NCBI GenBank assembly: GCA_965222225.1 | Contig: CBDCTK010000002.1 | Span: forward strand, 320,001-384,000 | Source: Candidatus Poribacteria bacterium | Lineage (GTDB): Bacteria > Poribacteria > WGA-4E > JAJDTR01 | DNA: 64,000 bases | Reading direction: 5' to 3' | Shown here: one piece after another, positions 457 to 59,840 of the stretch | Layout: every line of letters begins with the position of its first letter | Numbering within the stretch: position 1 is the first letter of the stretch | Notes under the pieces: generated by a model | What the model was told of the DNA's origin: nothing | Database searches by the model: none | The model's input: only the letters and a program-made list of their open reading frames with translations | Translations under genes and position numbers: made by a program

Positions 457-491
457 ATCAAATGAGCGAATAGCGAATGCGATAGAGATTC
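457..491 (+). repeat. 35-nt micro-element copy 1, directly after TGTAGGAGCG (REP-like 5' arm)
   Basis: ATCAAATGAGCGAATAGCGAATGCGATAGAGATTC; first 33 nt identical to the copy at 53732. Confidence 0.85.
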
Positions 492-571
492 CATAGAGTT
501 CCCAAAAATATAACAACTCTGTCTGTGTGTAGATACTCTCCACAATTCCATAGTGAGTTTGTTAGAAAATT

Positions 572-2083
572 ATGGCGATGGATTCTATAAATAACAGTGA
601 AACAGGTCAACAGGCCGAAGAAACAGTTGAAAAAATAGAAATTCCGAAACCGACCGGTGTCTTTGCCGAACCATGGTCGGTGAAGAAATTAATCGGCTTG
701 CTTGCTGTCTTTGGTCCTGCCGCAATTGTGGCGTCGGCAAGCATTGGCGCGGGTGAAACTATTGTCGTTGTCAGTGCGGGTGCTTGGGCGAGTTACGGAC
801 TGCTATGGCTTGTGCTTTTGAGTTGTGTCGTAAAAGGCGTATTTGTCACCTATTTACTCGGACGCTACACCGCGGTAAGTGGGGAGCATGTAGGCCACCG
901 TCTAGTGCGCTTGCCCGGACCGCGTGGTTGGCTGTTACTTACGATTCTAATCATGGAGATGATTGGCGCCCCGCTGGCATGGGTGCCAATCGCAAAACCG
1001 TGCGGCGATCTTTTTCATTACTTCCTTGACGGGGTGCCAAAGTCTATTCCTGAGCCCGTTTGGGAAAACTTATTCACGTGTGCATTCATTGCCCTTGCGC
1101 TTGCGCTTAGCTTGCGTCTCACCTTTGAAAGGTTAGAAAAGCAGCAACTCATCATATGCGGTATCTTGGTCTTGGGTACGATCATTGGCACGTTGATGGT
1201 ACGTCCCGATTTTGGAAAGGCATTGGTTGGAAGTGTAAGCGTCGGGCAGCTTCCAAAACTTCCACCCTGGACACCTGAAGACACCGTCGAGAATCCTCTG
1301 TTAACAATGGCGACAGCCTTCGCTTATGTAGGCGGGTCCGTGTTGGGCTACATTGTTTACGCGAATTGGATTGGACTGCACCGCTGGGGGATGACGAGCC
1401 ATGAAAACATTGCAGCTATCCGAAAATACGCCTTTACGCGTGATAAGATTGACTACCTACCCGTAGGCAGAGAACAGGTGGCGCGTCTCCGAAAAATCAC
1501 CGCGCCATTACGGTGGGATGTCGGCATGGGCGCAATCGTTCTGTTCATCGTAACCGGGGCATTCATGATATCCGGTGCGGCAGTGCTCTATCCCCTAAAG
1601 ACCGAGTTCAAAGGGTGGAGTTTGCTCACAGAGCAGGCGCACGTGTGGAGCAACATCCACGCATCATTAGTTTGGGTTTACTACATTTGCATCATTGCCG
1701 CGCTGTGGGGAACGCTCCAAGCGCTGCCGGAAATCTATGCGCGAGTCTCACAGGAATTTCTTCAAGCGGTCTGGCCAAATCATAAGTGGGATTATCATAA
1801 GATTCAACGGTTAATCTGCGGTTATCTGTTCATCACCACCGCGATCATCATTTGGAGCAACGTTCCGTTCCACATCCTCACACAGATTGCCGGTTTCCTC
1901 ATAGCCAACCTGGCAATTGGTATGATGATGCTCGCTGCGCTGTATCTAAATTTTAAACTACCTTCTGCCTATCGGACACGGCTGCCGATGTCAATCGGCG
2001 CCGTTGTGTCCGCAGGCATTCTTTTTGTTTTTGCGGGTATTAGCGGGTGGGGATTATTTGCCAAGTTGCTTGGTAACGGCTAG
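572..2083 (+). CDS. Nramp-family (YcsG-like) membrane transporter
   Basis: FGPAAIVASASIGAGE N-terminal motif, GA-x-YGLLW, about 11 hydrophobic segments. Confidence 0.75.
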   Translation: MAMDSINNSETGQQAEETVEKIEIPKPTGVFAEPWSVKKLIGLLAVFGPAAIVASASIGAGETIVVVSAGAWASYGLLWLVLLSCVVKGVFVTYLLGRYTAVSGEHVGHRLVRLPGPRGWLLLTILIMEMIGAPLAWVPIAKPCGDLFHYFLDGVPKSIPEPVWENLFTCAFIALALALSLRLTFERLEKQQLIICGILVLGTIIGTLMVRPDFGKALVGSVSVGQLPKLPPWTPEDTVENPLLTMATAFAYVGGSVLGYIVYANWIGLHRWGMTSHENIAAIRKYAFTRDKIDYLPVGREQVARLRKITAPLRWDVGMGAIVLFIVTGAFMISGAAVLYPLKTEFKGWSLLTEQAHVWSNIHASLVWVYYICIIAALWGTLQALPEIYARVSQEFLQAVWPNHKWDYHKIQRLICGYLFITTAIIIWSNVPFHILTQIAGFLIANLAIGMMMLAALYLNFKLPSAYRTRLPMSIGAVVSAGILFVFAGISGWGLFAKLLGNG

Positions 2084-2339
2084 GAATATGCCGGAAGATA
2101 GGATTGAGTTCATTTGTCATGCCCTGTCAACGCGCACGGGCAACTACAGGGAAGTTTATCTTGCGTCGGGCGGGAATACCCCGTCGTAAGAAGGTATCAA
2201 AACAGGCCGGATCGTACGAAGGACTGATGCGTACGTTCTCGCATGCTGTGGCACGCGACATTACCTCGAGATTACTCCATATCTGGCATAAGTCCCTATT
2301 GTGCTTTAGCATATACGCTAAACAAAGGAGAAACTATCT

Positions 2340-3152
2340 ATGGCATCAAATCGCTTCAGAGAAAGAATGAACTCCGGCGCGCCACTCACCGGAACGCACA
2401 TCATGACCGCTCACGAAGACCTCTTTGAAATAGCTGCGGCAACAGGTCTTTATGACACTATAGAGTTTAGCGCGGAATACAGCATGTTTGACATGCGTTT
2501 GTTGAACAATATGGCACGCGCGGCAGAGTTGTATAACACGTCGCTCATCATTAAACTCGATCAATACAGTCAAGGCTTTTGGGCGCAGGCGGCCATAGGC
2601 GCGGGGTTTCACGCCGTACTTTTTACCGACATTCGGACACCTGATGACATCGTCGCGTGCCATAAGATACTTCGACCCGATAAGCCTGGAATAGACGGGC
2701 ACATGGGGGTAAAGATTCGCCGCATCGCTATTGAAGGGTACGGTGGCAGCAGCAGCTACCTTCAGAAGATTGAGGACATTGGGTTCATAGTAATGATTGA
2801 AAAGGACGTGGCTGTCCAAAACCTCGATGAGATCTGTTCTGTTGCAGCCGAGTTGGGTGTCGACATGATACAGTGGGGACCGTCGGATTTTGGATTCAGT
2901 CGGCCGAGCACGCCAACACCCGAAGAAATTCAGTATTTCGAGAAACGGGTGATTAAAACGGCTCTCGCCAAAGGCATTCGGCCTCGTGTCGAATTGGAAT
3001 TTCCTACCCCTGAAAAGATGGATTACTACACCGAGTTAGGGATTAAGGATTACTGCGCCATGTGGGACCGGAGCGCATTATCAAGTGGTTGGACTAAGAC
3101 GGGAACGGCGCTGAAGGAAGAATTGGCGGCTCGCTGGTCGCAATACTATTAA
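2340..3152 (+). CDS. HpcH/HpaI aldolase/citrate lyase family protein
   Basis: AEY, MIEK..AV.NLDEI, WGPSD motifs; AAGGAG RBS. Confidence 0.8.
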   Translation: MASNRFRERMNSGAPLTGTHIMTAHEDLFEIAAATGLYDTIEFSAEYSMFDMRLLNNMARAAELYNTSLIIKLDQYSQGFWAQAAIGAGFHAVLFTDIRTPDDIVACHKILRPDKPGIDGHMGVKIRRIAIEGYGGSSSYLQKIEDIGFIVMIEKDVAVQNLDEICSVAAELGVDMIQWGPSDFGFSRPSTPTPEEIQYFEKRVIKTALAKGIRPRVELEFPTPEKMDYYTELGIKDYCAMWDRSALSSGWTKTGTALKEELAARWSQYY

Positions 3153-3176
3153 CCGTAAATCGGATAGGAGGATATA

Positions 3177-4034
3177 ATGGCTTACAAACTGGATTCGCAA
3201 ACCATGTACATGATGCCGACGCATTTTGGACCGAGCACGGGCCCGAGACAGGGTCCGGATGGACGCAAGTTTGAATGCAAGGATAATCCCAAGTCGAAAT
3301 CTGTGTCCGTCAGCTTTCTTACCAATAGCGAGCAACTCAAGGAATTGTTGCCGCCCGGCGGTTTCGAGTTGGGCGCTGAACCCGTCGTAACTGTGTCTGC
3401 CACTTACATGACAGAAATCGAATGGTTAGCTGGTCGTGGTTACAATGTCCTTGGTGTTAGCTTTCCCGTCGTTTTTAATGGAAAAGAGGACCGTGCCAGG
3501 GGTAGTCTGCTGACCGTGCTGTGGGAAAATCTGTGCGACCCGATTCTCACGGGACGTGAACAGTTGGGGTTCTCCAAAATCTACTGCGAACTGCCTGAGC
3601 CTGTTGTTCTTCGTGGAGAGACACACGTTATAGCCAGTTGGCTCGGATTCAAATTCCTAGACATGAAGCTGACCAACATGCATGAGATACCGTTGCCGCA
3701 AACCGCACCGTCATCCGCACCATCAGCTAAACCGAAAGACGATGTGTTGACGGGGACGTTGCATTACAAGTATATGCCGAGAACAGGCGAGTGGGGTACA
3801 CCTGACATAGCTTACGCCGTACTCACGCCATCCGAGGGAGGAAATGGCCGCACCACGGAACTTTGGCGCGGTGAAGGCACTGTGGAGTTCCACAAAGCGA
3901 GATGGGAAGACCTGCCGACACAGTACAGTATCGTCAATGCTTTCCACGACTTAGAAATAGTGGAATACCGTGGCGCCAGTTTCTCGATGGGAATTGGTGA
4001 CAAAGATTTGAGCGATCAGCGAATTCTACGCTAG
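3177..4034 (+). CDS. Acetoacetate decarboxylase family protein
   Basis: Y.MP.HFGP N-terminus and PILTGREQLGFSK (GRE..G..K Schiff-base Lys motif); AGGAG RBS. Confidence 0.85.
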   Translation: MAYKLDSQTMYMMPTHFGPSTGPRQGPDGRKFECKDNPKSKSVSVSFLTNSEQLKELLPPGGFELGAEPVVTVSATYMTEIEWLAGRGYNVLGVSFPVVFNGKEDRARGSLLTVLWENLCDPILTGREQLGFSKIYCELPEPVVLRGETHVIASWLGFKFLDMKLTNMHEIPLPQTAPSSAPSAKPKDDVLTGTLHYKYMPRTGEWGTPDIAYAVLTPSEGGNGRTTELWRGEGTVEFHKARWEDLPTQYSIVNAFHDLEIVEYRGASFSMGIGDKDLSDQRILR

Positions 4035-4048
4035 ACTGAAGAAACCAA

Positions 4049-4196
4049 CTAGTACAGATAGGCGTAATTGCCTTATGAGTTAGCGGTAGGTGCGATTTCC
4101 CAATCGCACCGTCAGTTAAGGTGCTGTTTAAGTGAACGTACAGAGGGCGCGCTTAACCGTTTCATTCACTTAACTATTTCCGCCAACGTGTACTAG
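4049..4196. mobile_element. 148-bp MITE-like element with imperfect CTAGTACA...GGCG terminal inverted repeats and an internal REP hairpin
   Basis: Left CTAGTACAGATAGGCGTAATT vs right end reverse-complemented CTAGTACACGTTGGCGGAAAT; internal GGTAGGTGCGATTTCCCAATCGCACC. Confidence 0.6.
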
Positions 4197-4223
4197 CGAA
4201 CTTCAGCTCAAAGTTGTATGATT

Positions 4224-4252
4224 AAAAACCCCGGCATTGCTCGGGGTTTTTT
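4224..4252. terminator. Bidirectional intrinsic terminator
   Basis: AAAAACCCCGG-CATTGC-TCGGGGTTTTTT between convergent genes. Confidence 0.8.
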
Positions 4253-4398
4253 GTTTACATATCGCTCAATTCTCCTAGCGACTTGGGTTAATCAAGGGCG
4301 CGTCGGCTTTTATGCCTTCCGGCTTGTGCTTCAAGCCCCAAACCCCGCCTGCCGTATTTGGGCTTTGTAGGAACCGCTTGGCTTGCTCGGGCGCAGGG

Positions 4399-4685
4399 CG
4401 TAGGTTGGGTTAAATGGTTTGATGCGAATCACTACCAAGCACAATAGAGGTTCTGTCTTTCGTTGAGGCGGGTTTATACGGAGATAGAATGAAACCCAAC
4501 ACCTCAATCCAACGCACATGTTGATTATCAAGTTGGGTTTCACTAGTCATGGGAGTTTCAAGTGGTATTGGAGCTCGAAAGCCGTGCGCAATGCGGGTGA
4601 TTTTTGGCGTTGACAGGATCTCTATCGCACGGGATCTTCTATCGCGCTCATTATTCATTCGCTTGATCGTTCAACCCAACCTACA
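4399..4685. repeat. Expanded GTAG-type REP doublet carrying inserts, including micro-element copy 2 (4632-4667, minus) and a remnant (4616-4631)
   Basis: CGTAGGTTGGGTT...GAAACCCAAC...GTTGGGTTTCACT...GTTCAACCCAACCTAC. Confidence 0.7.
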
Positions 4686-4742
4686 TGGGACTGGACTTAG
4701 CCCCTTCATGTCCAGGAACCTAGAGTACTTTAATCCCGTCTC

Positions 4743-5983
4743 TTAATCCATCCATAGGGATGCAATCCCGTCTTTGATGATGTTCTCCATGCCAACCGCA
4801 AGTGGCCGGTTCACCGGATTTGCCCACAAGCTTGGGAAACAGCCCGCTTCATATCTGCCCTTTTCGCCAAGAGCCAATTCTTTGTCCGTAGCAATATACC
4901 CCGGGCCTTCATTGGTATAACCAAAGGTCATGTTGTGGTCAAACGGAGCGTTTTCGTCAACCCAAAGCTCGTATTCACAGAATATCTCGCTGGGAAGCGT
5001 AATAAGGCACCATTCCGTGCCTAGCATGATAGCGTTGATGTCGAATTGTATCTCTGACGGCGACCACTCCCCGCGTTCAATCATTTCCTTGATTGACTGA
5101 AGCAGCGGTTCCTGTCTTCTATATTCGTGAAGCGAGAGAATCCTGAGACGCTCGCATGCCTCCCGCCAGACTTCCATTGAGGGTAGCTCTTGGGTGGGGA
5201 GTGTAACTCGGGTGGATCGCACCTTTAACTTGTCTGTATTGATCTCGGTGCTGTTACGCATGGCTTCAAGTACACCACGACCAAGCTTTCTACCCGCTTC
5301 CTCAGCCCGTTCATGCCAGCCACTCTCAATGCTAAACGATACGGGAAATCCGTTAATATTTGCGCCACACCCTTGTGCGAACAGTGGTGTCACTACGTTA
5401 CCTAGTTCTTCGGTGATGTGATTTACCGCATGACCAGGAAAGTCAGCGCTGATATCACCGCTTGTCATTGTTATGACGGGGTGTGCAGCATGTTCGAACA
5501 GGAAGCAAGTGGTCTGCCGTCTTCCGTGTACGCTGCGAGCGTGTTGACCCATGGCACAACCGCGCCCTCTTGGTTGACTGCCATGATCACCACGCCATTT
5601 TCGTCGGCGAGACGGCGATTGTATCCGACCTGTGCCGATCCGCGCCCTACACGGAGCGACACATCGACTCGGTTAGCATACGCTTCTTCCGCCGCGGAGA
5701 AGATTAACTCTCCCATGCGCTTCGCCCAATCTTCGTCCCGTGAGTCGCGTCCGTCCGCATGCGTGTGCGAACAGTTTATTAGCGTGTGTTTGATGCCTAG
5801 CTGTTGCTGGATCTTTTCACGGATTTCAGGAAAGAACGGGTCTACCATGTCCAAGCAAATTATGCATAGAGTTTCTTCACCGTCATCCAACACGAGGGCT
5901 TTGGCAAAGAGCGGGTCGTGTATAGGAGGATTGCCAATGAGTTCAGGAAACGTCATATCTCTAGTGCTAACCCCAGCTTTCAT
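4743..5983 (-). pseudogene. Neutral/alkaline ceramidase-like (N-terminal domain) hydrolase, split by a 1-nt frameshift near 5505
   Basis: ORF 5471-5983 has HDPLFAKALVL, LINCSHTH and GYNRR; ORF 4743-5552 continues with HAAHPV, AQGCGANIN, PSEIF and GYTN..GY; adding one T restores GRPLAFLFEHAAHP. Confidence 0.75.
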
Positions 5984-5996
5984 GCGTTGTCTCCTT

Positions 5997-6203
5997 ATAC
6001 CATTTCTCTATATTTGAAGTGCATTAATAGCGTCAATCAAATCTTACTAATGCGGGGCAAGATGGGATTTCTATCGCCTTCGCTATTCGCTCAGCTGATC
6101 CCCGCTTATGGGTTTGGTGTGTGGGGTAATGGTTGGTATCGGTCATTTCATAACAGTATAATTGAAAAACATCATACGCAATATTATTCATGCGAAATGG
6201 TAT
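5997..6203 (-). mobile_element. MITE family A copy (TACCATTTC...GAAATGGTA ends) containing micro-element copy 3 (6065-6099)
   Basis: Reverse complement aligns along its length with 52380-52429 + 53407-53530, and at its ends with 59626-59840. Confidence 0.8.
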
Positions 6204-6325
6204 TGTCATGTATTTAAGGAATAAACTTAAGGGCTTCCTGCGACGCCATCATCGCCACTAGAGAACCACACTTCGTCGCACGCCCCCTATGTCCTCAATC
6301 CACAGCCGATGATACCACTATATGC

Positions 6326-7207
6326 TTAATCCCTCCAACGACTCGGATTAATCGAAGGTGCGTCATTTTTCATTCCTTTTGGCTTATGCTCTAGGCCCCA
6401 GACCCCGCCCGTCGTATTGAGGCTTTGCAAGAACGGCTTGGCTTGTACAGGCGCAGCAGCTACTAGCTCGGGATCCCATTCTTCCATAGGTTGGATGGGC
6501 CCCGCCCACGCCGGTCGGTAGCCGAACTGGATGAGTTCCCTGGCGGACGTATCTGTGTTCGGATGGGTGGCATGGAAAAGCGTGCTAGGAATAACCACCG
6601 CCGAACCCGCTTCTAGGCAGAGTGTAGCTTCTTCGGGGTGTGATTTATAGCGTACGTACGGACTTGCCTGTGCATGAAACGAGAGGTGGCTGCGAGGGAT
6701 ACAGCGGAACGGCGCGCGCTTTGGCAGCAGGTCATCGAGATAGTATAACACCCGCAGCAATCGAGGAGAACTCCCTTCATAGTCGAAGATTGATGAGCCA
6801 TGGGGCTGCCCATCAGTGTGCATTGAAATCCCCGGAGATCCGGGGAGTGTTCTCTGAAAGAAGCCGCGTGTAAAGACGATATCTGGTCCCATAAGTTCCG
6901 TAAGAAACTCAATCGTCGGTGGGTGACCGATAAGTTCTGCAACCGCACGGCTTATCCATTGTGGCTGTTGCTTTCCAACGGTCTGATAGTCGCTGTACGG
7001 TTTAACCCCCATCGGAGTGTCCGCAAGCTCTGCTTTAAGGCGTGCAATATGCTCCGCGCTTAGAATGTCGGGCAAGACCACATAGCCTTCCACCTCAAAA
7101 TGACGGATTCGCTGTGCCAAAGTGAATGAGCGAAAGTCGGTTTCGTCAATATTCATGAAATCGATGACTTCATTGGGGGCGATTACGGGGATATCGGTCT
7201 CTTTCAT
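6326..7207 (-). CDS. Phytanoyl-CoA dioxygenase (PhyH) family Fe/2OG dioxygenase
   Basis: F..EGYVVL..L, HTD metal motif, IPRSH and distal FHAT..N..R. Confidence 0.85.
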   Translation of the reverse strand: MKETDIPVIAPNEVIDFMNIDETDFRSFTLAQRIRHFEVEGYVVLPDILSAEHIARLKAELADTPMGVKPYSDYQTVGKQQPQWISRAVAELIGHPPTIEFLTELMGPDIVFTRGFFQRTLPGSPGISMHTDGQPHGSSIFDYEGSSPRLLRVLYYLDDLLPKRAPFRCIPRSHLSFHAQASPYVRYKSHPEEATLCLEAGSAVVIPSTLFHATHPNTDTSARELIQFGYRPAWAGPIQPMEEWDPELVAAAPVQAKPFLQSLNTTGGVWGLEHKPKGMKNDAPSINPSRWRD

Positions 7208-7344
7208 CGGATTCTCCTTCTAGGTCTTGATCGACCTCAAAGTATATTTCAACAGGGCAGTGTTTGGGCACTCCCGATTGTGTAGCGCGTTCTGTTGCAC
7301 CATTTGTCTGTGTGAGTATCTTATGGATATTCCTATGGATATTC

Positions 7345-8522
7345 CTAGAAATACTCAAGCGTATAGGTCGTTTTTGGTGGTAAAAGCGCTGTCGCAGCCT
7401 TCACCGCGTCTGCGCTGGAGCACGACACAAAACCGTGTTCCAATAGATTCTCAAGACTGGGTTCGCCTAACCACGCTTGCGAATACTGACGGATATCTAT
7501 TTGTAAATCTCCACTATCGGTTGGTTCGACATGTATACCCTCCGGGGAGAAGGATACCCGCCACGGTCCTCGGTTGGACGGCAGAATTTCGTCATCAATG
7601 ACCATTGTGAAGTTGCCAGACTCCGTTGTTGACAACCCCGTGAGTGAGTCTGGAACGTTAATAACCCGGAACATAGAGGGATTGGGAAGTCTCGCCGTCA
7701 TGCCGCGGGTGAACCACTTCGACGACAAAAATGGTCCATTTGAGGGTTCAGCCCAGGTAATGGTTTGGCGATTGATACCCACTCCTGCCAGAGTCGCAAG
7801 CATGGATTCATATCCTTCGAGTGTAGCCCACACAAACTCGATAACGTCAAGGTCGTCGTTCCGTGTCAATCGAAGGAGCGCGTATGCTTCTACCGGGTCG
7901 CCGGCGGCGAACACGAAGGGTGGAGTGCCGTGGGTCTGCGTGTGCCGCGACAAACCAAAACCTTTGCGGGACGTTCGCATTCCCGAATAGCGAAACGCAA
8001 ACTTCTCGTACGCTAGATCGAGAGGTGCCCAATCGTCGACGCTTAATTGGCGGATTGGCAGTGGACAGTCCATTTTGGGAAACAAGGGGACGGGACACGT
8101 CACGTGAACATCACGCCCGCAACATTCCCAACCGAAACGTCGATAGAAAATCTCGTGGGCGGCATGCAGGTTCGTCATCGTTTCGCCGGTGCTGTGCATG
8201 TGTTCTATACCATACGTCATCATGGCGCTGCCTATATGCCGCTTACGGGCTGAGGGTGTAACCGCGACGCCGCTCACCCCGCCGCATTTGAAGAGTGCCC
8301 CGCGGCACGTCCTCGGGGTATAAAAATCTGGAATGCGCCGGCAACTAGCCCATCTTCATCGGCGACGAACATCTGCTAGTCCTCTTCGGGACTTCAAGTG
8401 TCGAGTCGCACGTCAAGGTTATCAACATTCGGATTGGGTTGCCCGGCATCAAAAGCAGCCGACCAAATCATGCCAACCTGCTTACGGTCATCCTCTCGGT
8501 ATTCTCGGATGAGCGCGGTCAC
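7345..8522 (-). pseudogene. Eis-like GNAT acetyltransferase with SCP2-like C-terminus, 5' part disrupted
   Basis: GVAV.P.ARKRHIG, FYRRFGWE and C-terminal sterol-carrier-like domain ending EYF. The upstream frame from GTG 8522 (AAGGAG RBS) contains in-frame TGA and TAG plus a frameshift near 8315. Confidence 0.75.
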
Positions 8523-8734
8523 AAAAATAGCAATTCTCCTTTCGATTCTCAAGTGCTGGCTGTTTTATGCCATGGATTCTATTTCGTTTACTCTGGATGA
8601 CTTCTGGTGGTTCTCGTCAGATTGAAAGAACGTGCCTCAACGCTTTACATCCATAGCGATGAGCCTAATGTCTCCTGGTGTCTACCGCTGAATAGCTGAT
8701 TAAAGGATTGCGAACAAGAAAGTAACGTGACAAC

Positions 8735-9580
8735 TCAGCGGAGGTGCTTTAACATGGTAAGTGGTGTAGTTGCAAGTAACGCCGCGTCAACTGGCAGCGC
8801 CACTCCCGAAATCCAGCGAGATTCGTCGCTTCCGAGGAACACGGCTGCCCACGCGACATCCCAAGCGGTTCCCTCCGTTGCCAGCGGCACGGTTCTGCGG
8901 CGCAAATCGCGGTATTCGTCCGTTATCTTGCTAACCATTGAGGCGTAAAGGTAACCCGGAACAATGCAGTTAACGCGAATTCCATCCCTGCCGTGATGCA
9001 CCGCCATGTTCCGGGTTAGCGATATGACACCCCCTTTGGAAGCAGCGTAGGCTACTTCCGGTGTCATATTCGGCGATCGCAAAGCGGCGATTGACGAGAC
9101 GTTGATTATGGAACCGCCACCCGCTTTTATCATTGCCGGGATAGCGTATTTGCTCGTAAGCATCATACTCTTAATATTGATTTCCATCATCCGTTCCCAT
9201 CCGTCTTCCTCCACATCAAGAACGGTCCCCGGATTGCCAATTCCGCTGATGCCGACGTTATTGAATAGGATGTTTAAACTTCCGAATCGCGCAATAGCCG
9301 TCTCTACCATTGCCTTACAATCCGCGCTTCGCGTGACATCGGCGACAAACGCCGATGCTTCTCCCTCAGCCTCCTCAATGGCTGCAACGGTTCGCGCCGC
9401 GTTCTCGGCATTGACATCGACGACAAGCACCTTGGCTCCCTGCATGGCAAAAAGGACTGCTGTCGCCAGTCCGGTACCGTCAGCGTAGCCGCCGCGGCTT
9501 CCGGCGCCAGTGACGATGGCGACCTTTCCCTTCAATCTTGTGCCACTTTTTTCCAAAGTTGGAGAGATCTCATTCTTCAA
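8735..9580 (-). CDS. Short-chain dehydrogenase/reductase
   Basis: GKVAIVTGAG, NNVG, YAASK and IRVNCIVPG motifs. Confidence 0.9.
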   Translation of the reverse strand: MKNEISPTLEKSGTRLKGKVAIVTGAGSRGGYADGTGLATAVLFAMQGAKVLVVDVNAENAARTVAAIEEAEGEASAFVADVTRSADCKAMVETAIARFGSLNILFNNVGISGIGNPGTVLDVEEDGWERMMEINIKSMMLTSKYAIPAMIKAGGGSIINVSSIAALRSPNMTPEVAYAASKGGVISLTRNMAVHHGRDGIRVNCIVPGYLYASMVSKITDEYRDLRRRTVPLATEGTAWDVAWAAVFLGSDESRWISGVALPVDAALLATTPLTMLKHLR

Positions 9581-9709: not shown

Positions 9710-9855
9710 TTCTATCGCACTGGAATTTCTATCGCGCTCCTTATTCGGTCGCTTGATCGGTTTGCCACGTATTTTCTTAAGCGGGCTTAAGCGAGTCGGG
9801 CTAGAATGGAATTTCTATCGCACTCCCTAATCGGTCGCTTGATTTCGACCTACCG
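9710..9855 (-). repeat. Micro-element copies 4 (9723-9757) and 5 (9809-9843) plus a remnant (9710-9722); copy 5 is inside a GTAGGTCG...CCCGAC REP
   Basis: Reverse complements ATCAAGCGACCGAATAAGGAGCGCGATAGAAATTC and ATCAAGCGACCGATTAGGGAGTGCGATAGAAATTC. Confidence 0.85.
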
Positions 9856-11621: not shown

Positions 11622-11655
11622 AGACGCTGATTATCAACGTTTCGCATTTGTAAAA

Positions 11656-24718: not shown

Positions 24719-24850
24719 TGTAGGGGATCAAGCGACTGAATAAGGAGGGCGATAGAGATCCCTTCCAGGTCGCGACTTCTTATCGCGAGCAGAGCTCGCT
24801 CCTACAGAAGACACGCCATAAACTACGCTACTACAAACCGAACAATGTAG
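24719..24850 (+). repeat. REP cluster containing micro-element copy 6 (24727-24761)
   Basis: TGTAGGGG|ATCAAGCGACTGAATAAGGAGGGCGATAGAGATCC|CTTCCAGGTCGCGAC...GAGCTCGCTCCTACA; flanks resemble 40458-40600. Confidence 0.8.
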
Positions 24851-40457: not shown

Positions 40458-40597
40458 TGTAGGAGCGATCTCCCAATTGCGACATTCTGTCGCGAGCAGA
40501 ACTCACTCCTACAGAAGACGCGTGATGAAGGGATTCCTATCGCCCTCAGTATCTGTGCGGTTGATCTCTACTACAAACCGAACTGCGTAAGTCCTAT
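40458..40597. repeat. REP cluster with micro-element copy 7 (40531-40565, minus), ending in GCGTAAGTCCTA (MITE-like end)
   Basis: TGTAGGAGCGATCTCCCAATTGCGAC...CACTCCTACAGAAGAC; element reverse complement ATCAACCGCACAGATACTGAGGGCGATAGGAATCC. Confidence 0.75.
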
Positions 40598-50942: not shown

Positions 50943-50976
50943 AGGAGATTCGCAGAACTTTTCCTGCGAATCTCCT
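50943..50976. terminator. Strong stem-loop after the OMP C-terminal remnant
   Basis: AGGAGATTCGCAG-N8-CTGCGAATCTCCT (13-bp stem). Confidence 0.55.
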
Positions 50977-50982
50977 CAACTG

Positions 50983-51383: not shown

Positions 51384-51441
51384 GATGATGATCGATAAAA
51401 CACTCCACAACTAAGCCATGGTTTAGCAACTTTAACCGGCG

Positions 51442-51962
51442 AAAGGCGTTGGGTAAACAGTTGAATACTACTGGGGTGTCTCATACCCAATTAACCAGAC
51501 TCGCACCGTTTTTCCCTCTCGTATTTCCAAAGAGGCGGCTCCTATATCCGCCCGCTCAATACTCTCATCACGAACAGCGCGATTCACGCATTTCACTGTG
51601 AAGCCCCCTCCAGACGCAAACCGACATTCCCAATAGGATAATGGCGAACGGGAGGCCAGCCGCGAGCGTGGCCGCCTGTAACGATTTTAGACCGCCGCCA
51701 AGCAGCAGCGCGATGGCGACCAGCCCCTCGACAGTACACCAGAACACACGTTGCAGCACCGGAGTGTCAATCTTGCCGCCAGCTGCGATGAGGTCAATGA
51801 TTAGGGGCCGGAGTCTGAGGAGGTAATGAAAAATACGATTGTCAGAATTATCGCGACGGATGAAAGTAGTGCCATCATCGGTAGTTTGTCAAACATTTTG
51901 AACAATGCAATTTCAAGATTATGAACTTCAACATTCTCGGTTACATCAGTATAGCCGTCAAC
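51442..51962 (-). pseudogene. About 520-bp copy of the BCCT gene 3' end plus downstream DNA (cf. 54099-54618), with a 1-nt deletion
   Basis: Long identical stretches (e.g. QRVFWCTVEGLVAIALLLGGGLKSLQAA); ATTAGGGGCCGG vs ATTAGGGAGCCGG. Confidence 0.9.
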
Positions 51963-52292
51963 TATCACTATCAGATCCTGCACGTTACTGCCAAAGATAT
52001 TGAGATTGAGAATCAGATTCTCGGCAATCGCATATCCGATCCCAATTGTCGTGTTACCAGAAACGCCGCCGAAAACAAACTCTTTTCCCTCAACCTCTTC
52101 GATAGATGCTGTGACTCCGATCCCTGTAGAAAGGCGAAGAAAGAACCCATCATACCTATGCTCAGTGTTGTCATCACCAGCCGTGACAGTGGGGGCGATC
52201 TGACCGTGGCTAATACATTATACACCATAAATCAACAACATCATCGCTAGAATCAACACGATGACTTTTCCATTCACACTTGCGTTCAACAT
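51955..52292 (-). pseudogene. N-terminal half of the small outer-membrane beta-barrel gene (premature TAA at codon 25)
   Basis: AAGGAG RBS; MLNASVNGKVIVLILAMMLLIYGV*CISHGQ...HRYDGFFLRLSTGIG...IGIGYAIAENLIL...VDG. Confidence 0.65.
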
Positions 52293-52429
52293 GAGAAAAC
52301 TCCTTATATTTGTTTTTCGATTTCAAAACGAAATCGGGTTAATGCTTGTCCTACTTGACTCCACGGCGCTCAGAATATAATACCATTTCGTTTGAATAAT
52401 AGTGCGTATAGTGTTTTTCAAATATACTA

Positions 52430-53401
52430 ACCTTTGGTGCTAGTTTAGAGAGTGAATTGAGCTATTGACAGAGGCACAAAGCCATCGTCGTCAATCGACA
52501 ATCCATTCCACTGTACCAAGAGATTGAACAAAGCCATTGTAAAGCCGACTCGCGTTTTGAAGTAACTCCAACGACGGTGCATGACTTTCTTAAAATGGCA
52601 CACTAGCGTCAACATGGACAAAATCGTTTCTACCAGCATCCGAGAATTCCACTCGCCACGTCGGCACAGACGCAAGTTGGAAGGGAACCAATCCGCTTTG
52701 GCGAAATTTACATCGGCAAAAACAACCATCTGGTCACTGACCCCATCAACGAGATGTTGGAAGGCACTCCCATCATGTACATTGGCAGTGTCGCAGTCCC
52801 AGTTGACAATCAGTCCGAGATGATTGTGTAGCAAGCAAAGTTTTCCACCTACAATCCATCGTTGGTTGGAAATGCCTTTGCGTCCGATTTGACGTTTAGA
52901 GCGCCCTTCTCGGCGCGGGTGAATCAATTCAATACCGTACGTGTCAATTCCACCGATAAGCGAAGGATTCGCCATAAAAACGTCAATGAGATGTTGATGC
53001 CCGTCGAATAAGCGGAACAATCGGGTACGCTCGGGTAACATCGGAAATAAGGATTTGAAATTGTTCGCTATCCAGCGATAGGAGGCTCGATTACCCACAC
53101 CCTTGAGCGCAAAGAGCATGGCAATGGTAACCACTTCAGACGGATAAAGTTTGGCATGGCTATGCTTATGGTTTTTACCGTGCTGTGAGAGTTTATCATC
53201 AACACAACAAAACAGTTCTGTGATAAAATCTACTATGGTCATGAGTCTAGATTTCCTCCCGTTATTTGATAGCTACCGATACTCAAATTAACGGTAGAAT
53301 CGAGGAAATCGTCTCATGCCCTGATACCTTTCGCGTTAAAGCAAAGCCAAAAGGGAATGTTATGCTTATTAACCTCCAAATTTCAAACTAGCACCATTGG
53401 T
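52430..53401 (-). mobile_element. IS982-family insertion sequence, 972 bp, with 5-bp target duplication TACTA
   Basis: TIRs ACCTTTGGTGCTAGTTT / ACCAATGGTGCTAGTTT; TACTA at 52425-52429 and 53402-53406; AC...GT ends and about 1 kb size typical of IS982. Confidence 0.85.
52445..53242 (-). CDS. DDE transposase (IS982 family)
   Basis: LFCCVDD, L..SEVVTI, LPERTRL.R, ID, G.KL, ANVHD, AD, R..VET..S.L. Confidence 0.85.
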   Translation of the reverse strand: MTIVDFITELFCCVDDKLSQHGKNHKHSHAKLYPSEVVTIAMLFALKGVGNRASYRWIANNFKSLFPMLPERTRLFRLFDGHQHLIDVFMANPSLIGGIDTYGIELIHPRREGRSKRQIGRKGISNQRWIVGGKLCLLHNHLGLIVNWDCDTANVHDGSAFQHLVDGVSDQMVVFADVNFAKADWFPSNLRLCRRGEWNSRMLVETILSMLTLVCHFKKVMHRRWSYFKTRVGFTMALFNLLVQWNGLSIDDDGFVPLSIAQFTL

Positions 53402-53718
53402 TACTATTATGACACGCCCCATACCACCTGTTGGCCTTCACACCAAACCCCGTAGGCGGGGCATCTTGCCCCGCTGTGGAAAGACCTGATTGACGCTATT
53501 GATGCACTTCGAATATAGAGAAATGGTATAACCACAAATTATAGTCAAAAGAATCTTTCCGTTTTCCACTGTTTTGCACTAATCCGTGTGCTATAAAACT
53601 CGAGTTTCCACCTTGTGAAGAAATGAGGCAAGAGAGCTTGTAAGTTGGGTAGAGGTCGGTCAATTAACGACATTGCGAACTAGTTTCTGTTAAAATTTTT
53701 GTCAAGCGTGTGCGTACT

Positions 53719-53985
53719 CGTAGGGGCGCGGATCAAATGAGCGAATAGCGAATGCGATAGAGATCTTCTCCTCGCCCAACGGGTTGGGAGACCCAACCCC
53801 TACGTTTGCCGGTGCGTGTCTAACTAGGGGGCTTGGTTTCCTCGTCCGTTCCTCCAACGCGTTGAGTTGTGTCCACATGTCAAAAAACGTGCAAAGCACA
53901 AACAGAACCCGAACGGGCGGGGATCAAATGAGCAGATAGCAATCAAGCGAACGGATAGTGAGTGCGATAGAAATCTTCTTACCCC
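53719..53985 (+). repeat. REP cluster with micro-element copies 8 (53732-53766) and 9 (53942-53976); copy 9 follows a truncated copy at 53923-53941
   Basis: CGTAGGGGCGCGG|element|TCTCCTCGCCC...GGGTTGGGAGACCCAACCCCTACG. Confidence 0.85.
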
Positions 53986-54219
53986 GTGCTGACTTCCCAC
54001 AAACTCGGTTGCTTTGCCCAATTTGCTTACTTGAGAGAACCTATTTATGCCTCCCTCGATTATCTGGTGACGACGAAATGCCAACAGAACCTAGCACAAG
54101 GCGTCGGGTTAACAGTTAAATACTACTGGGGTGTCTCATACCAAATTAACCAGATTCGCCCCGTTTTCCCCTCTCGTATTTCCAAAGAGGCGGCTCCTAT
54201 ATCCGCCCGCTCAATATTC

Positions 54220-55790
54220 TCAGCGCGATTTGCGCGATTCACGCATTTCACTGTGAAGCCCCCTCCAGACGCAAACCGACATTCCCAATAGGATAATGGC
54301 GAACGGGAGGCCAGCCGCGAGCGTGGCCGCCTGTAACGATTTTAGACCGCCGCCAAGCAGCAGCGCGATGGCGACCAGCCCCTCGACAGTACACCAGAAC
54401 ACACGTTGCGGCGCCGGTGTGTCAATCTTGCCGCCAGCCGCGATGAGGTCAATGATTAGGGAGCCGGAGTCTGAGGAGGTAATGAAAAATACGATTGTCA
54501 GAATTATCGCGACGGATGAAAGTAGTGTCATCATCGGAAATCTGTCAAACATTTTGAACAATGTAATTTCAAGATTCTGAGCTTCAACATTCTCGGCCAC
54601 ATCGGAATAACCGTCAACGAGATGCTGGTGGAGTGCAGTGCCGCCAAAGCCGCCGAACCACAATAAACATAACAACGTCGGCAAAAGGAGCACGAAGATT
54701 GTGAATTCTCGAACCGTGCGTCCTCTTGAAATGCGAGCAATGAATGGGCCAACGAACGGTGCCCAAGCAAGCCACCATGCCCAAGAGAACGTCGTCCAAT
54801 CGTGCAAGAATCCGATATCTTCCCGCCCAATCCAGTTACTGAGTGGTACAATCATCGCTAGATAGCTACCAAACCCAGCCAACATACTGCGGAAAATATA
54901 GCGCGTCGGGCCGAGGATGATAACAGTCAAGAGCAACAAAAACGCAAGAATTATGTTGAACTGGCTAAGACGCTTGATGCCCACATTAATACCGGTCAAC
55001 ACCGATGTCAGCGCGATGCACGTAATGACGACAATCAGCATTACCATGGTGGCGCTGGTCGCCGGAACATCAAACAGATAGTTCAGGCCGATGGTAATCT
55101 GTTGTACCCCCAAGCCGAGCGAGGTCGCAAGCCCAAACAACCCTGCGAATATGGCGAACGTATCAATGATATGGCCAGGCCATCCCCAGACGCGGTCTCC
55201 GATCAATGGATAGAACGCTGAGCGGATAGTGAGAGGTAGTTTCTTATTGTAGGCGAAAAACCCTAAAGCAAGTCCGCCATGCCGTAAATTGCCCAGCCGT
55301 GTAGACCCCAGTGGAAGATCGCAGCCGATATACCGACGGTGGCAGCTTCCTCCGTTCCGGCGGTAACCCCGAGCGGAGGGTTCTGCAAGTAATACATCGG
55401 TTCCGCCACACCGAAAAACAGTAGACCAATACCCACACCTGCCGAAAAGAGCATGGCAAACCAGGTTAAATTGGAGTACTCGGGTTTTGAATCCGCGCCC
55501 CCCAGGCGCACCTTGCCGAGCGGTGAGAACACCAAGTACAGAAAAAAGAGTAAGATTAGGTTGGCAGCGATCATGAAAAACCAATTAAGATTCGTTGTGA
55601 GCCAAGTGTAAGTGTCTCCGAAAACTTTCGTCGCACCTTCTTGAAAGACGAGTGCCCCAACGACAAATAGGGCGATGCCTATGCTGGACATCACGAACAC
55701 CGGAGTTAGATAGATATCTAAACCGAATAACTTCCGGTACGTCGTGTCATCTGGCAGATATGGTTGATTTTCTTCTTCGCGCACTTTCAA
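54220..55790 (-). CDS. BCCT (betaine/carnitine/choline) transporter; 1-nt frameshift near 55275
   Basis: WFAMLFSAGVGIGL.FFGVAEP, FHWGLHGWAIY, WT.F.WAWW.AW.PFVG.FIARISRGRT.REF and FF.TSSDSG; one extra G joins the two ORFs. Confidence 0.88.
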
Positions 55791-55901
55791 AATTCTCCTT
55801 TTAGCCAAGTAGGCGCGCCTTGCAAACATACCTACTTGACCCTACAGACGTAGCTGATTAGGACATTTTAAGGAAGGATGGAAAAATCCTTGCATGCCTT
55901 C

Positions 55902-56138
55902 TTCGTAACAGTTTAGTTCGGTTCAAGAAAAGGGGCTAACTGTTGAGTTTGGTCTATGAAAATGGATAAATGGTCGTAAAGTTTATGTCTCTATTTATCG
56001 GTGGGAGCGGCATCTCTGCCGCGACCAGCGCGGGTGGAGTAGCATCCGCCCATTACATGTAAACGGCGGACGTGCAATGAATTGCACTACTACGAGCCAA
56101 CATCGGCAATATAGATCGATGGACTAAACTGTTACGAA
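55902..56138. mobile_element. 237-bp MITE-like element with perfect 16-bp terminal inverted repeats and internal REP hairpins
   Basis: TTCGTAACAGTTTAGT ... ACTAAACTGTTACGAA; internal GTGGGAGCGGCATCTCTGCCGCG and GTGCAATGAATTGCACTACTAC. Confidence 0.7.
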
Positions 56139-56318
56139 AAATGGTAGTTCTTGACAATGGGTTCATCTTGCCAGGCTCTCTTAGGGAATATCGGCGATCA
56201 TTCCCTGCATTGTCCAGTCATTTTGCAAAAGGAATTACCCTTAAACTAGCCTAGATTTTCAACTCGTTGGGACAAATATACTCAATCCGGTTGAGTCGTT
56301 AAGGAGGGAAAGTGAAAA

Positions 56319-57095
56319 TTAGGAGAGCACCATCTGGTGGGCTTTCGTGAAGCAACGGCGGCGAACAATGTGAACGACGATTGAAGTGCCGATTGCCGTG
56401 GATGCAACTAACATTAACATTACTAGAATTTGATACTTGATGGCGGTCAACGGTTGAGTACCTGACATAATCTGACCTGTCATCATGCCCGGTAGCGAGA
56501 CTAAGCCGACCGTCATCAGCGCGTTAATTGAGGGGATCATTCCCGCTTTGATAACCGTGCGAAGAATATCACCGGTTGCCTCCTGATACGTGGCTCCCAA
56601 ACACAAAGCCAATTCAATTGTATCAGATTCTTTCCGCAGGTCCGAGAACAATCGATCCAAAGCAATGGATATGGCGTTCATCGAGTTGCCGATAATCATG
56701 CCGCCAAGTGGAATGAAATACTGAGGAGTATACCACGGCTTAACTTGCAGAATTGCACCAGTGACAGCGAAGGCAACAATCATGTAGCTGACAACCATGG
56801 AAACAAAGGTTGGCGTAAAAAGACGAACCTCTTTCTCCTTAACCCGACCGCTGATGGTTTGTGCCGCCCAGAAAATCATCCAGATATAGCAGAGAATCAC
56901 GAGATACGGATTCTTGATGTCGAAGATGAACTTGAGAATGTATCCGACCAGAAATAGTTGAGCAAACGTCCGCACAGTTCCCCAGACGAGGTCTTTCTCC
57001 AACCTCAACTTAAAGAGGAGGGATCCGACGCCAGCGACCACAACAAATGCCAAGCAAAGTACCAACTGGAGTGGAGAAATCTCTATGATATTCAT
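56319..57095 (-). CDS. fetB: UPF0014 ABC permease (FetB/YbbM-like)
   Basis: RT.AQL..VGY.L, IP.GGM.IGNSM, E..L.LGAT, GLVSLPGMMTGQI.SG..P..A.KYQ. Confidence 0.85.
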   Translation of the reverse strand: MNIIEISPLQLVLCLAFVVVAGVGSLLFKLRLEKDLVWGTVRTFAQLFLVGYILKFIFDIKNPYLVILCYIWMIFWAAQTISGRVKEKEVRLFTPTFVSMVVSYMIVAFAVTGAILQVKPWYTPQYFIPLGGMIIGNSMNAISIALDRLFSDLRKESDTIELALCLGATYQEATGDILRTVIKAGMIPSINALMTVGLVSLPGMMTGQIMSGTQPLTAIKYQILVMLMLVASTAIGTSIVVHIVRRRCFTKAHQMVLS

Positions 57096-57757
57096 GCGGA
57101 TACCTCCTCAAGCCTATCAGGTTGGAGGAGAAATCTCCGAGACTTTACTCGGTCGGGGACAAAATCGAAGTGTGTTACTAAAATAACACCAATCTTCTGT
57201 TCAATATTCAGTCGTTCTAGGGAATCCTCAACAATCTCCTTTGACTGTTGGTCAAGCGCCGATGTCGGTTCATCGCACAGCAGGATTTCAGGCTCCGTGA
57301 GCACCGTCCGAACCAAGGCAATTCGTTGTTTTTGACCCACGGAAAGTTTCATCGCGTCATCACTCAGCTTAACGCCTTCAATTACAAACGTCTCCATCCA
57401 CTTCTGTTTTTCAGCCGTGCCGGGCAGCTTTTGAGCGCCTGTCGAGTGGAATCGGAATGGGAAATCAAGGTTGTCTTCGACGGAGCCGGGTATCATTATA
57501 GGGGTTTGTTGGACATAGCCAATTTTACGCCTCAATGAAGTGACTTCATATGTGGCAATCAGTTGACCATCAATCAAAATCTCCCCCGATGTAGTTTCTT
57601 GCAGGCGATTCATCAGGCGCAATAGACTGGACTTCCCGACTCCGGACGCTCCCTGAACTACAATGAATTTACCTGTCTCTACGACTAGATTGATACCCTG
57701 AAGCAGCGGTGGTTTCCCGTCGTATTGCAAAGACACGTTTTTCAATTCGATTCGCAT
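57092..57757 (-). CDS. fetA: ABC transporter ATP-binding protein (FetA/YbbL-like)
   Basis: GASGVGKS, LSVGQKQR, LLCDEPTSALD and VTH; overlaps the fetB start. Confidence 0.85.
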   Translation of the reverse strand: MRIELKNVSLQYDGKPPLLQGINLVVETGKFIVVQGASGVGKSSLLRLMNRLQETTSGEILIDGQLIATYEVTSLRRKIGYVQQTPIMIPGSVEDNLDFPFRFHSTGAQKLPGTAEKQKWMETFVIEGVKLSDDAMKLSVGQKQRIALVRTVLTEPEILLCDEPTSALDQQSKEIVEDSLERLNIEQKIGVILVTHFDFVPDRVKSRRFLLQPDRLEEVSA

Positions 57758-57850
57758 ATCGGGTTAAGGGACTGTCCTGCTGTGAAGTGTAGCAAGCGTC
57801 ATCAAATTGCCTTGCATTTTCTCGCACCTCAATTCAAGTTCTCCACACAA

Positions 57851-58867
57851 TTAAAAACCGCGTCCGCTTGCTACAATAAAAGGCTGCAATTCCTCAACTA
57901 ATTGTAGGAATGTGTCTGGACTAAGCGATTGTGCACCATCAGAAAGCGCTTTATCGGGATTCGGATGCATTTCAATCATTAGTCCGTCTGCTCCCGCAGC
58001 GACAGCAGCTTTTGCCATTGGTGGAACAAATTCTGAATCTCCAGTCCCATGGCTAGGATCTGCGATGATGGGCAAATGACTCATTTTTTTGAGTACGGGA
58101 ATTGCGTTCAAATCAAATGTGTTGCGAGTTGCTGTTTCAAATGTGCGAATACCTCGCTCGCACAGCAGTACATTGTAGTTGCCACCAGAAAGGACGTATT
58201 CGGCTGAAAGCAAGAGTTCATCCACCTTGGACATCATGCCGCGCTTAATCATGACCGGCTTTTTTGCCTTTCGCAGGCGTGAGAGAAGCCCGTAGTTCTG
58301 CATATTCCGAGCTCCAATCTGAATGATGTCGGTATATTTCTCCACAAGCTGCAAATCATAACTATCAAGCAATTCGGTGATAATCAACAACCCGGTTTTG
58401 TCTCGCGCTTCGGCGAGGTATTCTAGCCCTTCTTCGCCAAGTCCTTGAAAACTATACGGAGACGTGCGCGGTTTGAAAGCGCCTCCCCGCAAGATTTGTG
58501 CACCGGACTCTTTGACAGTTTCGGCTGCTTCCAGAATCTGCTCTCGACTTTCAACGGAGCACGGTCCAGCCATCAAGATTAACCTATCACCACCGATTTC
58601 AACATTCCCGATTCGAATAACACTTCGCTCCTGCCTATATTCTCTGCCCGATAATTTGTACGGTTCAAGAATCGGTACAACTTTATCAACCGCGTGCATT
58701 GACTCTAGCTGCTGGAGTTCGTACTTGCCGCGTTCATCTCCAATAGCGGCTATGACTGTGCATTCCGTTCCCTGAATCGGGTGGGGGGTGTACCCAAGCT
58801 CCTCAATTCTGGCAATGACGGCATCAATGTATCGCTGTTCCGCCTCTGCGCTCATAACAATGACCAC
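57851..58867 (-). CDS. aroF: DAHP synthase type I-beta with N-terminal regulatory domain
   Basis: [40 protein letters not shown] and DPSHG. Confidence 0.95.
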
Positions 58868-59409
58868 TGGTCTCTATCTCCTGTGTATTTTAAGGGGTGT
58901 GGGTTGTGGTTGGTTCTCGCAACGAAGCCGGAATCCTTACATTATCGGTTTCTAACGTTGGGATTCGCGTACCCTACTTTAATCGTAGCGAATTCAATTG
59001 CATTTTCGAACGGGATTCTTGTCGAATCCAAGAAAATGGTTGGTTTTCAATCAACAATACGATTTATTGTGGTTCCGCGATTCATCATCTTTGAGCGAAT
59101 TTCGATTGTCAAATGGAAGATGGAGTTCCGAACTGCGTAAATCCAAGCAATTCAATACTATCAAGCAATTCAATACTATTTCGAAGGAAGTTGCGCCGAC
59201 TCTTTACCATTAAAGAATAACATATCTATCCACTTATTTACAAGAACAGGCAAGAACGTGTCTGAACCTAGACACGCTTCAAAGTCAGAGTATCGGGAGT
59301 ATGAATCCGTTTTCGGGGGTTAAGTCAAGGTAGTCGTAGAGGTCGAGTTATGCCATATCTAAGGGTGTTGTATACAAATCCTTGGAGTCGGCATTGTCTT
59401 TCTTTTAAC

Positions 59410-59438
59410 TTGACTTTTGGGACTGTTTTTGCTAAAAT
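59410..59438 (+). promoter_or_regulatory. Sigma70-type promoter facing gltA
   Basis: TTGACT, 17-nt spacer, TAAAAT with TG upstream of the -10. Confidence 0.55.
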
Positions 59439-59625
59439 AGCAGTGGGGTAGCGCCGAATTTAAAGTACGTTAATGCACTGCTGCGACAGAATCGGAATTT
59501 TTTTATTGAGCCTGCCGGAATGCAGTCCGTCCAAAGGTAGTGCATACCTTCCCTGTTTTCCTCACGAAGTTGACTCGTTACGAGCATTCGGGGCGCCCAA
59601 ATCTAGGACATGCACTTTGTTTGTT

Positions 59626-59840
59626 ATACCATTTCGCTTGAATAATAGTGCGTATAATGTCTTAATTATATCGTTCACTTTCTCCGTCGGCGGGGATCAA
59701 CTGACCCAACAGGCAGGGCGATGGAGATCTCGTCTTGCCCCGCCGACTTTTCGCGGAGACAAGGTTTATTTCTCTGCTACAAGCAAGTTTCTTTACTTAA
59801 TCCACGTAATCAATGCACTTGCATTTTAGTGAAATAGTAT
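59626..59840 (+). mobile_element. MITE family A copy with micro-element copy 10 (59696-59730)
   Basis: ATACCATTTCGCTTGAATAATAGTGCGTATA (1 mismatch to 52380) ... ATGCACTT...GAAATAGTAT; insert in the GCGGGG|CGTCTTGCCCCGC hairpin. Confidence 0.75.

Follow-up and report, generated by a model that had tools for sequence, protein, structure and literature searches.

A family of 33- to 36-nt hairpin elements inserted many times into REPs and other hairpins of a Candidatus Poribacteria genome

In a 64,000-nt stretch of DNA from a Candidatus Poribacteria bacterium (the window, G000:C2:320001-384000), we characterized a hairpin element of only 33 to 36 nt, which is one of the smallest mobile DNA elements seen. 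The window belongs to a sponge symbiont whose metagenome-assembled genome (MAG), here called G000, comprises 5.70 Mb in two contigs. Copies of the element, which begin with ATCA and carry GCGATAG behind a short hairpin, were added to this genome many times and independently, including into the hairpins of repetitive extragenic palindromic sequences (REPs). In our judgment, there is an even chance that they form a family of very small non-autonomous mobile elements moved as single-stranded DNA by a host Y1 (HUH) enzyme acting in trans.

Census and repeated insertion

The search pattern ATCA.{18}GCGAT[AG]G[AG][AG]AT[CT][CT] matched the window exactly nine times, compared with 0.00 matches expected from 100 dinucleotide shuffles of the window, and a tenth copy on the minus strand (4632/4633-4667) was recovered at two mismatches as a 36-nt variant. 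All ten copies given by a first-pass annotation of the window were therefore present, nine of them exact. Reading of the flanks showed that its three remnants are real (4616-4628 and 9710-9718 on the minus strand, 53923-53941 on the plus strand) and added one more 3′ remnant at 492-502 on the plus strand. When the genome-wide search proposed in the annotation was run, the pattern gave 369 exact matches in G000, and a profile search gave 932 matches at E ≤ 0.001. Allowing up to two substitutions in the 29-nt core pattern yielded 1068 cores, of which 624 were distinct. The main contig holds 1065 of these, and 909 (85%) lie outside long open reading frames (ORFs), though long ORFs, taken from our own crude call rather than from annotation, cover 82% of the contig. 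Instead of the fixed 35-nt unit initially described, the census revealed a 29-nt core (ATCA-hairpin-GCGATAG) followed by a variable tail of 4 to 7 nt; after GCGATAG, the tail was read as 6 nt (AGATCC in 198 copies, AAATCC in 95, and others) or as 7 nt.

The same targets were filled by many cores, and the same cores were found in many targets, as expected if a tiny non-autonomous unit had entered REP hairpins on many independent occasions, which is how the element had first been interpreted. An empty paralog, recognised by an identical 11-nt left flank and a right flank that matches, was found for 267 filled copies. The left flank GTAGGAGCG precedes 23 copies with 21 different cores, TCTCTATCG precedes 20 copies with 19 cores, and TAGGCGGGG precedes 14 copies with 12 cores. 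Conversely, 111 of the 119 multi-copy cores occur in at least two different left flanks; one core has 14 copies in 14 different flanks, and a single 29-nt core reaches up to 21 different left flanks. The element is therefore not the terminus of a longer insertion sequence (IS) or miniature inverted-repeat transposable element (MITE), a possibility that the annotation had itself raised. In the ~210-bp MITE-like family to which the filled/empty sites of the window (6065, 53456 and 59696) belong, searched with a strict pattern, 8 of the 13 members are empty, 4 are singly filled with four different cores, and 1 is doubly nested.

Copies are also inserted into one another. Among the 903 full copies, the set used for nesting counts, removal of 239 rejoins the core of a surrounding copy. 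Breakpoints of the 5′ partials fall after G12 (50), G17-19 (108) and G23 (134), which are the nesting hot spots, and the same G↓C step (the arrow marks the insertion point) is also used where copies have entered the antisense strand of another copy. A composite in which one copy is nested at G12 of another recurs in different flanks, indicating that composites go on multiplying. A tandem array of 38-nt period at G000:C2:1578373-1578600 contains six cores whose stems differ, with a 9-nt linker that ends in GTAGG behind each core; the array sits in a hot spot (1.54-1.586 Mb) where nearly every spacer has several copies.

The copies in the window and their contexts are given below, where G005 is the nearest genome, its genes being 93-94% identical to those of G000.

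457..491, plus strand: copy 1, 35 nt, 9 nt past GTAG; present at the orthologous place in G005
492-502, plus strand: solitary 3′ remnant of CATAG..TTCC type, directly behind copy 1
4616..4631, minus strand: extra 3′ module behind copy 2, a 3-nt linker plus GCGATAG-tail
4632..4667, minus strand: copy 2, 36-nt variant with a 7-nt tail, 16 nt past GTAG
6065..6099, minus strand: copy 3, clean 35-nt insertion at GGGG↓CAT in the hairpin of a ~207-bp MITE-like repeat (5997-6203)
9723..9757, minus strand: copy 4, followed by the 3′ remnant at 9710-9718
9809..9843, minus strand: copy 5, 9 nt past GTAG
24727..24761, plus strand: copy 6, 7 nt past the GTAG of a longer GTAG...CTAC REP; spacer unalignable in G005 and G001
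40531..40565, minus strand: copy 7, stem degenerate, 8 nt past GTAG
53456..53474, plus strand: empty target, the uninterrupted hairpin of the MITE-like repeat
53732..53766, plus strand: copy 8, in a GTAGGGGCG-type REP; an uninterrupted REP of the same type occurs in G004
53923..53941, plus strand: 19-nt 5′ partial left of an older copy that copy 9 interrupts
53942..53976, plus strand: copy 9, nested behind that 19-nt partial
59696..59730, plus strand: copy 10, inside a ~220-bp MITE-like repeat (~59623-59842)

The hairpin that is empty at 53456-53474 carries 35 additional nucleotides at 6065-6099 and also, with one flank substitution, at 59696-59730; the two filled hairpins hold different cores and show no duplicated flank. 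The filled/empty comparison reported initially was thus correct as to the exact 35 nt and the absence of duplication, with the qualification that the three sites are copies of one MITE-like repeat of ~207-220 bp. This repeat has short terminal inverted repeats, spans 5997-6203, ~53370-53580 and ~59623-59842 of the window, and occurs in many copies in G000 and G005. At copy 2, a 17-nt extra 3′ module is absent from the G005 counterpart. Contigs of two public runs (X3 and X8) join 4615 to 4669 and skip the 53-nt compound copy there, which is no proof of an empty allele as the sequence between is not known.

Target sites and junctions

As initially observed in the window, the ATCA end faces a GTAG: a GTAG lies at most 16 nt upstream on the same strand in exact form in 6 of the 10 copies, in degenerate form in 3, and in none for the copy at 9723. 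This fixed orientation holds genome-wide, where GTAG was found within 16 nt upstream of 238 of the 1068 cores compared with 22 for CTAC, and the distance from GTAG to the element peaks at 10 nt (113 copies). Filled/empty comparisons across the genome likewise bore out the lack of target-site duplication. Targets are mostly G↓C steps of GTAG REPs, of GCCCC-NNN-GGGGC hairpins flanking an IS200-like gene, of MITE hairpins and of other element copies. GTAG REPs, named at first as the target, are indeed hit repeatedly, but so are other GC hairpins and, very often, element copies in both orientations.

The left junction is G↓ATCA, the base before the element being G in 92% of the 369 exact copies. 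Position 36 is C or T in 93% of them and position 35 correlates with position 36. Precise insertion as a general rule, however, did not survive the genome-wide comparison, since the right junction often lacks one or two target bases (range 0-2), with an outcome that is specific to each target family and reproducible within it. At GGGG↓CATC-TTGCCCC sites, 8 nt separate GCGATAG from TTGCCCC in 11 of 12 filled copies, compared with the 10 expected of a clean 35-nt insertion; the "exactly 35 nt" derived from the window for this hairpin type is therefore exceptional, the right junction of these 11 being 2 nt shorter. The corresponding distance is 8 nt in 17 of 18 GGTGSG↓CAS-TG sites (clean insertion, 9), 9 nt in 13 of 15 CAYYGCG↓CAC-CAGCC sites, which is clean, and 9 nt in 9 of 10 GGGG↓CGAC-AGGT sites (clean insertion, 10). 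Among 89 nested G23↓CGATAG copies with a recognisable remainder, 44 have a 7-nt filler, with one G missing, and 36 have a 9-nt filler, which corresponds to a clean insertion with a 7-nt tail. No uninterrupted copy in the shortened form (GCATAG) was found in the genome, indicating that the base loss happens at insertion. Pre-existing target variants as the source of the short right junctions were rejected on the same ground, together with the uniformity of the empty loops. We found no single rule that accounts for all right-junction outcomes.

Such junctions could be produced with no dedicated enzyme, if a replicating strand switched template or copied a donor element through microhomology. Having stalled at a GC hairpin with one or more G at its end, the nascent strand would pair with the G before the donor, copy the element with one or two flanking bases, and return via C/T microhomology. 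The G at position 0, the C or T at position 36 and its correlation with position 35 suit this route, as do right-junction losses of 0-2 nt that resemble microhomology joints, targets that are hairpins, the replication-strand bias described below, and the failure to find a cognate enzyme among the Y1 and REP-associated tyrosine transposase (RAYT) loci examined. Template switching would, however, leave unexplained some 1000 copies of one sequence with a selected, covarying hairpin and invariant ATCAA and GCGATAG. Moreover, the left junction never varies, the outcomes are reproducible per target family rather than scattered, and donor copying predicts that the tail is inherited with the core, which it is not. 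We consider this route unlikely.

Part of the element's spread is passive, inside multiplying REPs and MITEs. G005, G001 and G002 lack the ~220-bp MITE-like unit with copy 10 in their orthologous spacer, indicating that copy 10 arrived as a passenger, and one REP-plus-insert composite makes up much of a 47-copy core. Copies can also be old, since a nested pair at one orthologous place is common to G005, G003 and G007, where it is much diverged. These observations, together with the likeness of right junctions within a target family, would fit an element that is not self-mobile at all, that is, a functional REP-like motif or protein-binding site that spreads within larger repeats and whose cores are homogenised or exchanged by gene conversion. 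Against this, the same outcome (G↓CGA to G-element-CA) is seen in unrelated contexts, 12 cores occur at one site type while single cores occur in 14 of 14 different flanks, other copies have been entered on either strand at one and the same G↓C step, and the conserved ends (5-13 nt) are too short for ordinary homologous conversion. We regard spread without mobility of its own as very improbable.

Fold, strand bias and candidate enzymes

Positions 1-5 (ATCAA) and 23-29 (GCGATAG) of the core are near-invariant, and between them lies a short stem of four covarying pairs (6:22, 7:21, 10:18 and 11:17). Positions 8-9 and 19-20 are an invariant tandem G.A/A.G that parts two 2-bp helices, and the 3-nt loop is closed by G12 and A16 (G.A). 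Standard pairs occupy 91% of stem cells across the 624 distinct cores, whereas 500 column shuffles gave a mean of 58% and a maximum of 60% and a slid-partner control gave 22-56%; all four stem pairs are standard in 443 of these cores. G:T or T:G pairs in the stem outnumber A:C or C:A pairs (311 versus 79), indicating that the fold belongs to the ATCA strand only, and antisense strands reach just -0.1 to -1.2 kcal/mol by nearest-neighbour folding, i.e., no fold. Pairing of the left flank with the tail, either as a closing stem or as a guide, was ruled out because no covariation between them was found.

The folded strand is on the locally C-rich strand in 68% of the 1065 main-contig cores, with loci-level strand counts of 263/100 versus 108/204 (Fisher p = 4e-23, elements masked from the skew). 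Uninterrupted GTAG REPs share this bias, which reaches 76% in the commonest type (204 REPs) and 62-70% in two others, as compared with 52% for all GTAGG words and 51% for a control word. The GC skew of G000 is itself patchy, with many sign changes along the 5.6-Mb contig.

A fold confined to one strand could equally belong to an RNA, and spread would then involve transcription of the element, recognition of the hairpin RNA and insertion of a cDNA. Both the surplus of G:T (G:U) pairs and the tandem G.A would be at home in RNA, folding with RNA parameters brings four of seven sense copies to the covariation-supported fold plus an outer ATC/GAT stem, and one imprecise junction is what target-primed reverse transcription leaves; the region is also present in RNA runs, which are uninformative on the element itself. 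The orientation of the element is, however, unrelated to gene direction (in tandem gene contexts, 327 copies run with the genes and 282 against them; the correlation with gene-strand bias is r = 0.05) but related to replication asymmetry. Rfam covariance models gave no match at gathering score in the window and none at E ≤ 1 in 53650-54050. The sole reverse transcriptase (RT)-like ORF found in G000 encodes a 670-aa AbiA-type defence RT (C2:4499560-4501572; L177:561-2573, minus strand; 254.8 bits to PADLOC AbiA), and RVT_1 matches are missing from three of nine other genomes of the host genus (g1) and from two of four genomes of a second element-bearing genus (g4). An RNA route thus appears quite improbable.

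As for Y1 enzymes, G000 has five matches to Pfam Y1_Tnp and seven to the NCBIfam REP-tyrosine-transposase. The best Y1 gene, L001 (L001/L006, G000:C2:3080258-3080728), is IS200-like and encodes 157 aa (NF033573, 65.8 bits at a cut-off of 55; Y1_Tnp, 83.7 bits). Its flanks contain inverted copies of the element, which made it a candidate for the cognate transposase. This candidate was rejected: the real ends of L001 and of its homologues L007-L017 are inverted GCCCC-NNN-GGGGC hairpins, an arrangement that is REPtron-like, kept across several Poribacteria genera and found also in genera without the element, and the element copies at L001 are insertions at GGGG↓CGA of these hairpins. The same hairpin is also a dispersed repeat in G000. 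Similarly, at the 20 RAYT loci of relatives, the genes have GTAG REPs of their own types at their flanks, and nearby copies of the element were inserted into these. A full-length parent sharing the ends of the element was not found, the IS200-like gene having different ones.

We nonetheless favor movement by a Y1 enzyme in trans because the element shares target, strand and bias with REPs. In addition, parts of the work on TnpA-REP (PMC3333891, PMC8266576) describe an enzyme that in vitro cleaves and rejoins single-stranded REP on either side of one folded hairpin at a somewhat flexible cleavage site, and propose integration of REPs into REP-bearing targets with variation coupled to that integration, all of which would suit the element. 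In such a mechanism, the ATCA strand, which folds, would be the active form, and the element would move as single-stranded DNA, linked to replication, by borrowing a host RAYT/IS200-type Y1 (HUH) enzyme. By analogy with the proposal of Ton-Hoang et al. for REPs and bacterial interspersed mosaic elements (BIMEs), an excised single-strand circle might recombine with a REP-bearing target, in which case the G before the element would be the left and target cleavage site and the tail would provide the right cleavage site. A more specific version, which we put forward tentatively and at clearly less than even confidence, is that the REP/RAYT system has a hyperparasite in this element. As a single-stranded DNA hairpin of 29 nt, it would take over a REP-bound domesticated Y1 enzyme and be inserted, during replication, at a G↓C step of the REP or of another element copy.

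Several observations weigh against a Y1 enzyme. At none of the five Y1 loci in G000 or the 20 RAYT loci in relatives does the element form the gene's own ends. The L001 type is present in 7 of 7 genomes of genus g6 and 5 of 10 of genus g3, both without the element, but in only two of the four element-bearing g4 genomes; the RAYT family is present in 33 of 41 genomes searched, and the distribution of Y1 genes does not track the element. The association with HUH enzymes drawn in the first-pass annotation is thus one that we continue to infer. HUH transposition is base-precise, yet the right junction of the element loses 0-2 target bases, differing by target family, and tails differ among copies with identical cores. 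Nearest-neighbour folding of the element is weak, no better than that of shuffles (z -1.0 to +1.1), so the structural case rests on covariation. If the G-rich strand is the leading strand, the bias runs counter to the polarity expected from the IS608 model. The bias could also stem from biased loss rather than biased insertion. Finally, no clean orthologous presence/absence was found in eight spacers compared with up to eight relatives, most spacers being unalignable even with the nearest genome.

Distribution and relation to known repeats

Across 176 Poribacteria genomes, exact-core matches number 149-1118 in 14, comprising all ten genomes of the host genus, G000 included, and all four of genus g4, which belongs to another family; 7 genomes have 1-17 matches and 155 none, and a reversed control pattern gave 0 in all. 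Among the matches listed by a global scan, 77 of 80 were in Poribacteria, and the other three, single matches in other taxa, were taken for chance. Tails are of the RRATYY type in the host genus and of a TCTT type in genus g4, where 13 of the 28 cores examined are identical to G000 cores. Assemblies are interrupted by the element at hundreds of positions, and most intergenic spacers of the genus are remodelled by it from one species to the next. In four public runs, the contigs stop at the repeats without spanning any of them. Two other repeats of the window also vary between relatives. An IS-like unit at 52425-53407, with a 265-aa ORF (52445-53242, minus strand), is missing from the orthologous site in G005, the two flanks being directly joined there, and has at least 15 copies at ~89% identity in G002. 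A ~240-bp repeat at 55905-56145 has copies 97-99% identical in G005.

Literature searches for core and tail words and for Poribacteria with REPs, which did not cover supplements, found no description of the element. The family thus appears undescribed, as the first-pass annotation had supposed, whereas its kind, very small nested mobile repeats, has been known since 2008 from the small dispersed repeats of Nostoc. Elhai et al. (2008) reportedly described eight of these (SDR1-SDR8), of 21-27 nt, in Nostoc punctiforme and relatives, and RNA-mediated spread is said to have been suggested for them once. The element resembles them in its size of tens of nucleotides, many dispersed copies, a hairpin with compensatory changes, the lack of an encoded protein, and its presence inside other repeats and MITEs and within its own copies. 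It differs in its larger size, in its occurrence in the phylum Poribacteria rather than in Nostocaceae (the sequences were not compared), in its tandem G.A hairpin and replication-strand bias, and in targeting GTAG REPs and G↓C steps rather than HIP1 or heptamer arrays. A cyanobacterial origin and a relation to HIP1 were ruled out, as G000 gives no photosystem reaction-centre (Photo_RC) match and has only 120 HIP1 sites. The Nostoc repeats are cited in parts of PMC5861425 and PMC3116915.

With REPs, BIMEs and REPINs and their RAYTs, as portrayed in parts of PMC3333891, PMC8266576, PMC3116915 and PMC6006769, the element shares its size class, hundreds of mainly intergenic copies, and one hairpin with a conserved 5′ block. 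It also shares a strand-specific fold and the strand bias of the genome's own GTAG REPs, and the REP-bearing targets proposed for REPs fit its choice of target. In contrast to REPs, its 5′ block is ATCAA instead of GTAG, its hairpin is short and non-canonical, and, unlike in a REPtron, it is not the cognate flanking repeat of any Y1 gene examined. The element parasitises REPs, and its solo insertion events are directly visible, which to our knowledge has not so far been shown for REPs.

Like IS200/IS605 elements, for which parts of PMC6006769 and PMC8266576 present IS608 as the paradigm of orientation-specific insertion of a folded single strand 3′ of a defined short target, without duplication and with a link to replication, the element inserts without target duplication, in fixed orientation and 3′ of a defined base, probably depends on a folded single strand, and is linked to replication asymmetry. 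It has, however, one hairpin instead of two subterminal ones, a target reduced to G (G↓C) instead of a tetra- or pentanucleotide, an imprecise right junction and an apparently reversed polarity of bias. Specific insertion into REP hairpins is also reported of the REP-targeting insertion sequences IS1397 and ISKpn1 of the IS110 family (Tobes and Pareja, 2006), and is said to be orientation-specific in some of them. Those are kilobase-sized and have their own transposase, whereas the element of 33 to 36 nt encodes nothing.

The only described class of sub-40-nt mobile repeats that we know of comes from one cyanobacterial family. The present family adds one in another phylum, with insertion sites readable base by base and a defined, non-canonical hairpin, with self-nesting that leaves the composite still mobile, and with a replication-strand bias common to the element and the host's REPs. 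How REPs and other very short repeats spread is still poorly understood, as noted in part of PMC8266576. The question of the mover can be tested with short oligonucleotides and the handful of Y1 proteins encoded in the genome. If the element does prove to be a hyperparasite of REPs, its hundreds of readable insertion events, both filled and empty, would show how HUH enzymes spread hairpin repeats; it would provide a minimal substrate of less than 40 nt for in vitro tests, and G000 would supply the readable insertion events that the REP field lacks.

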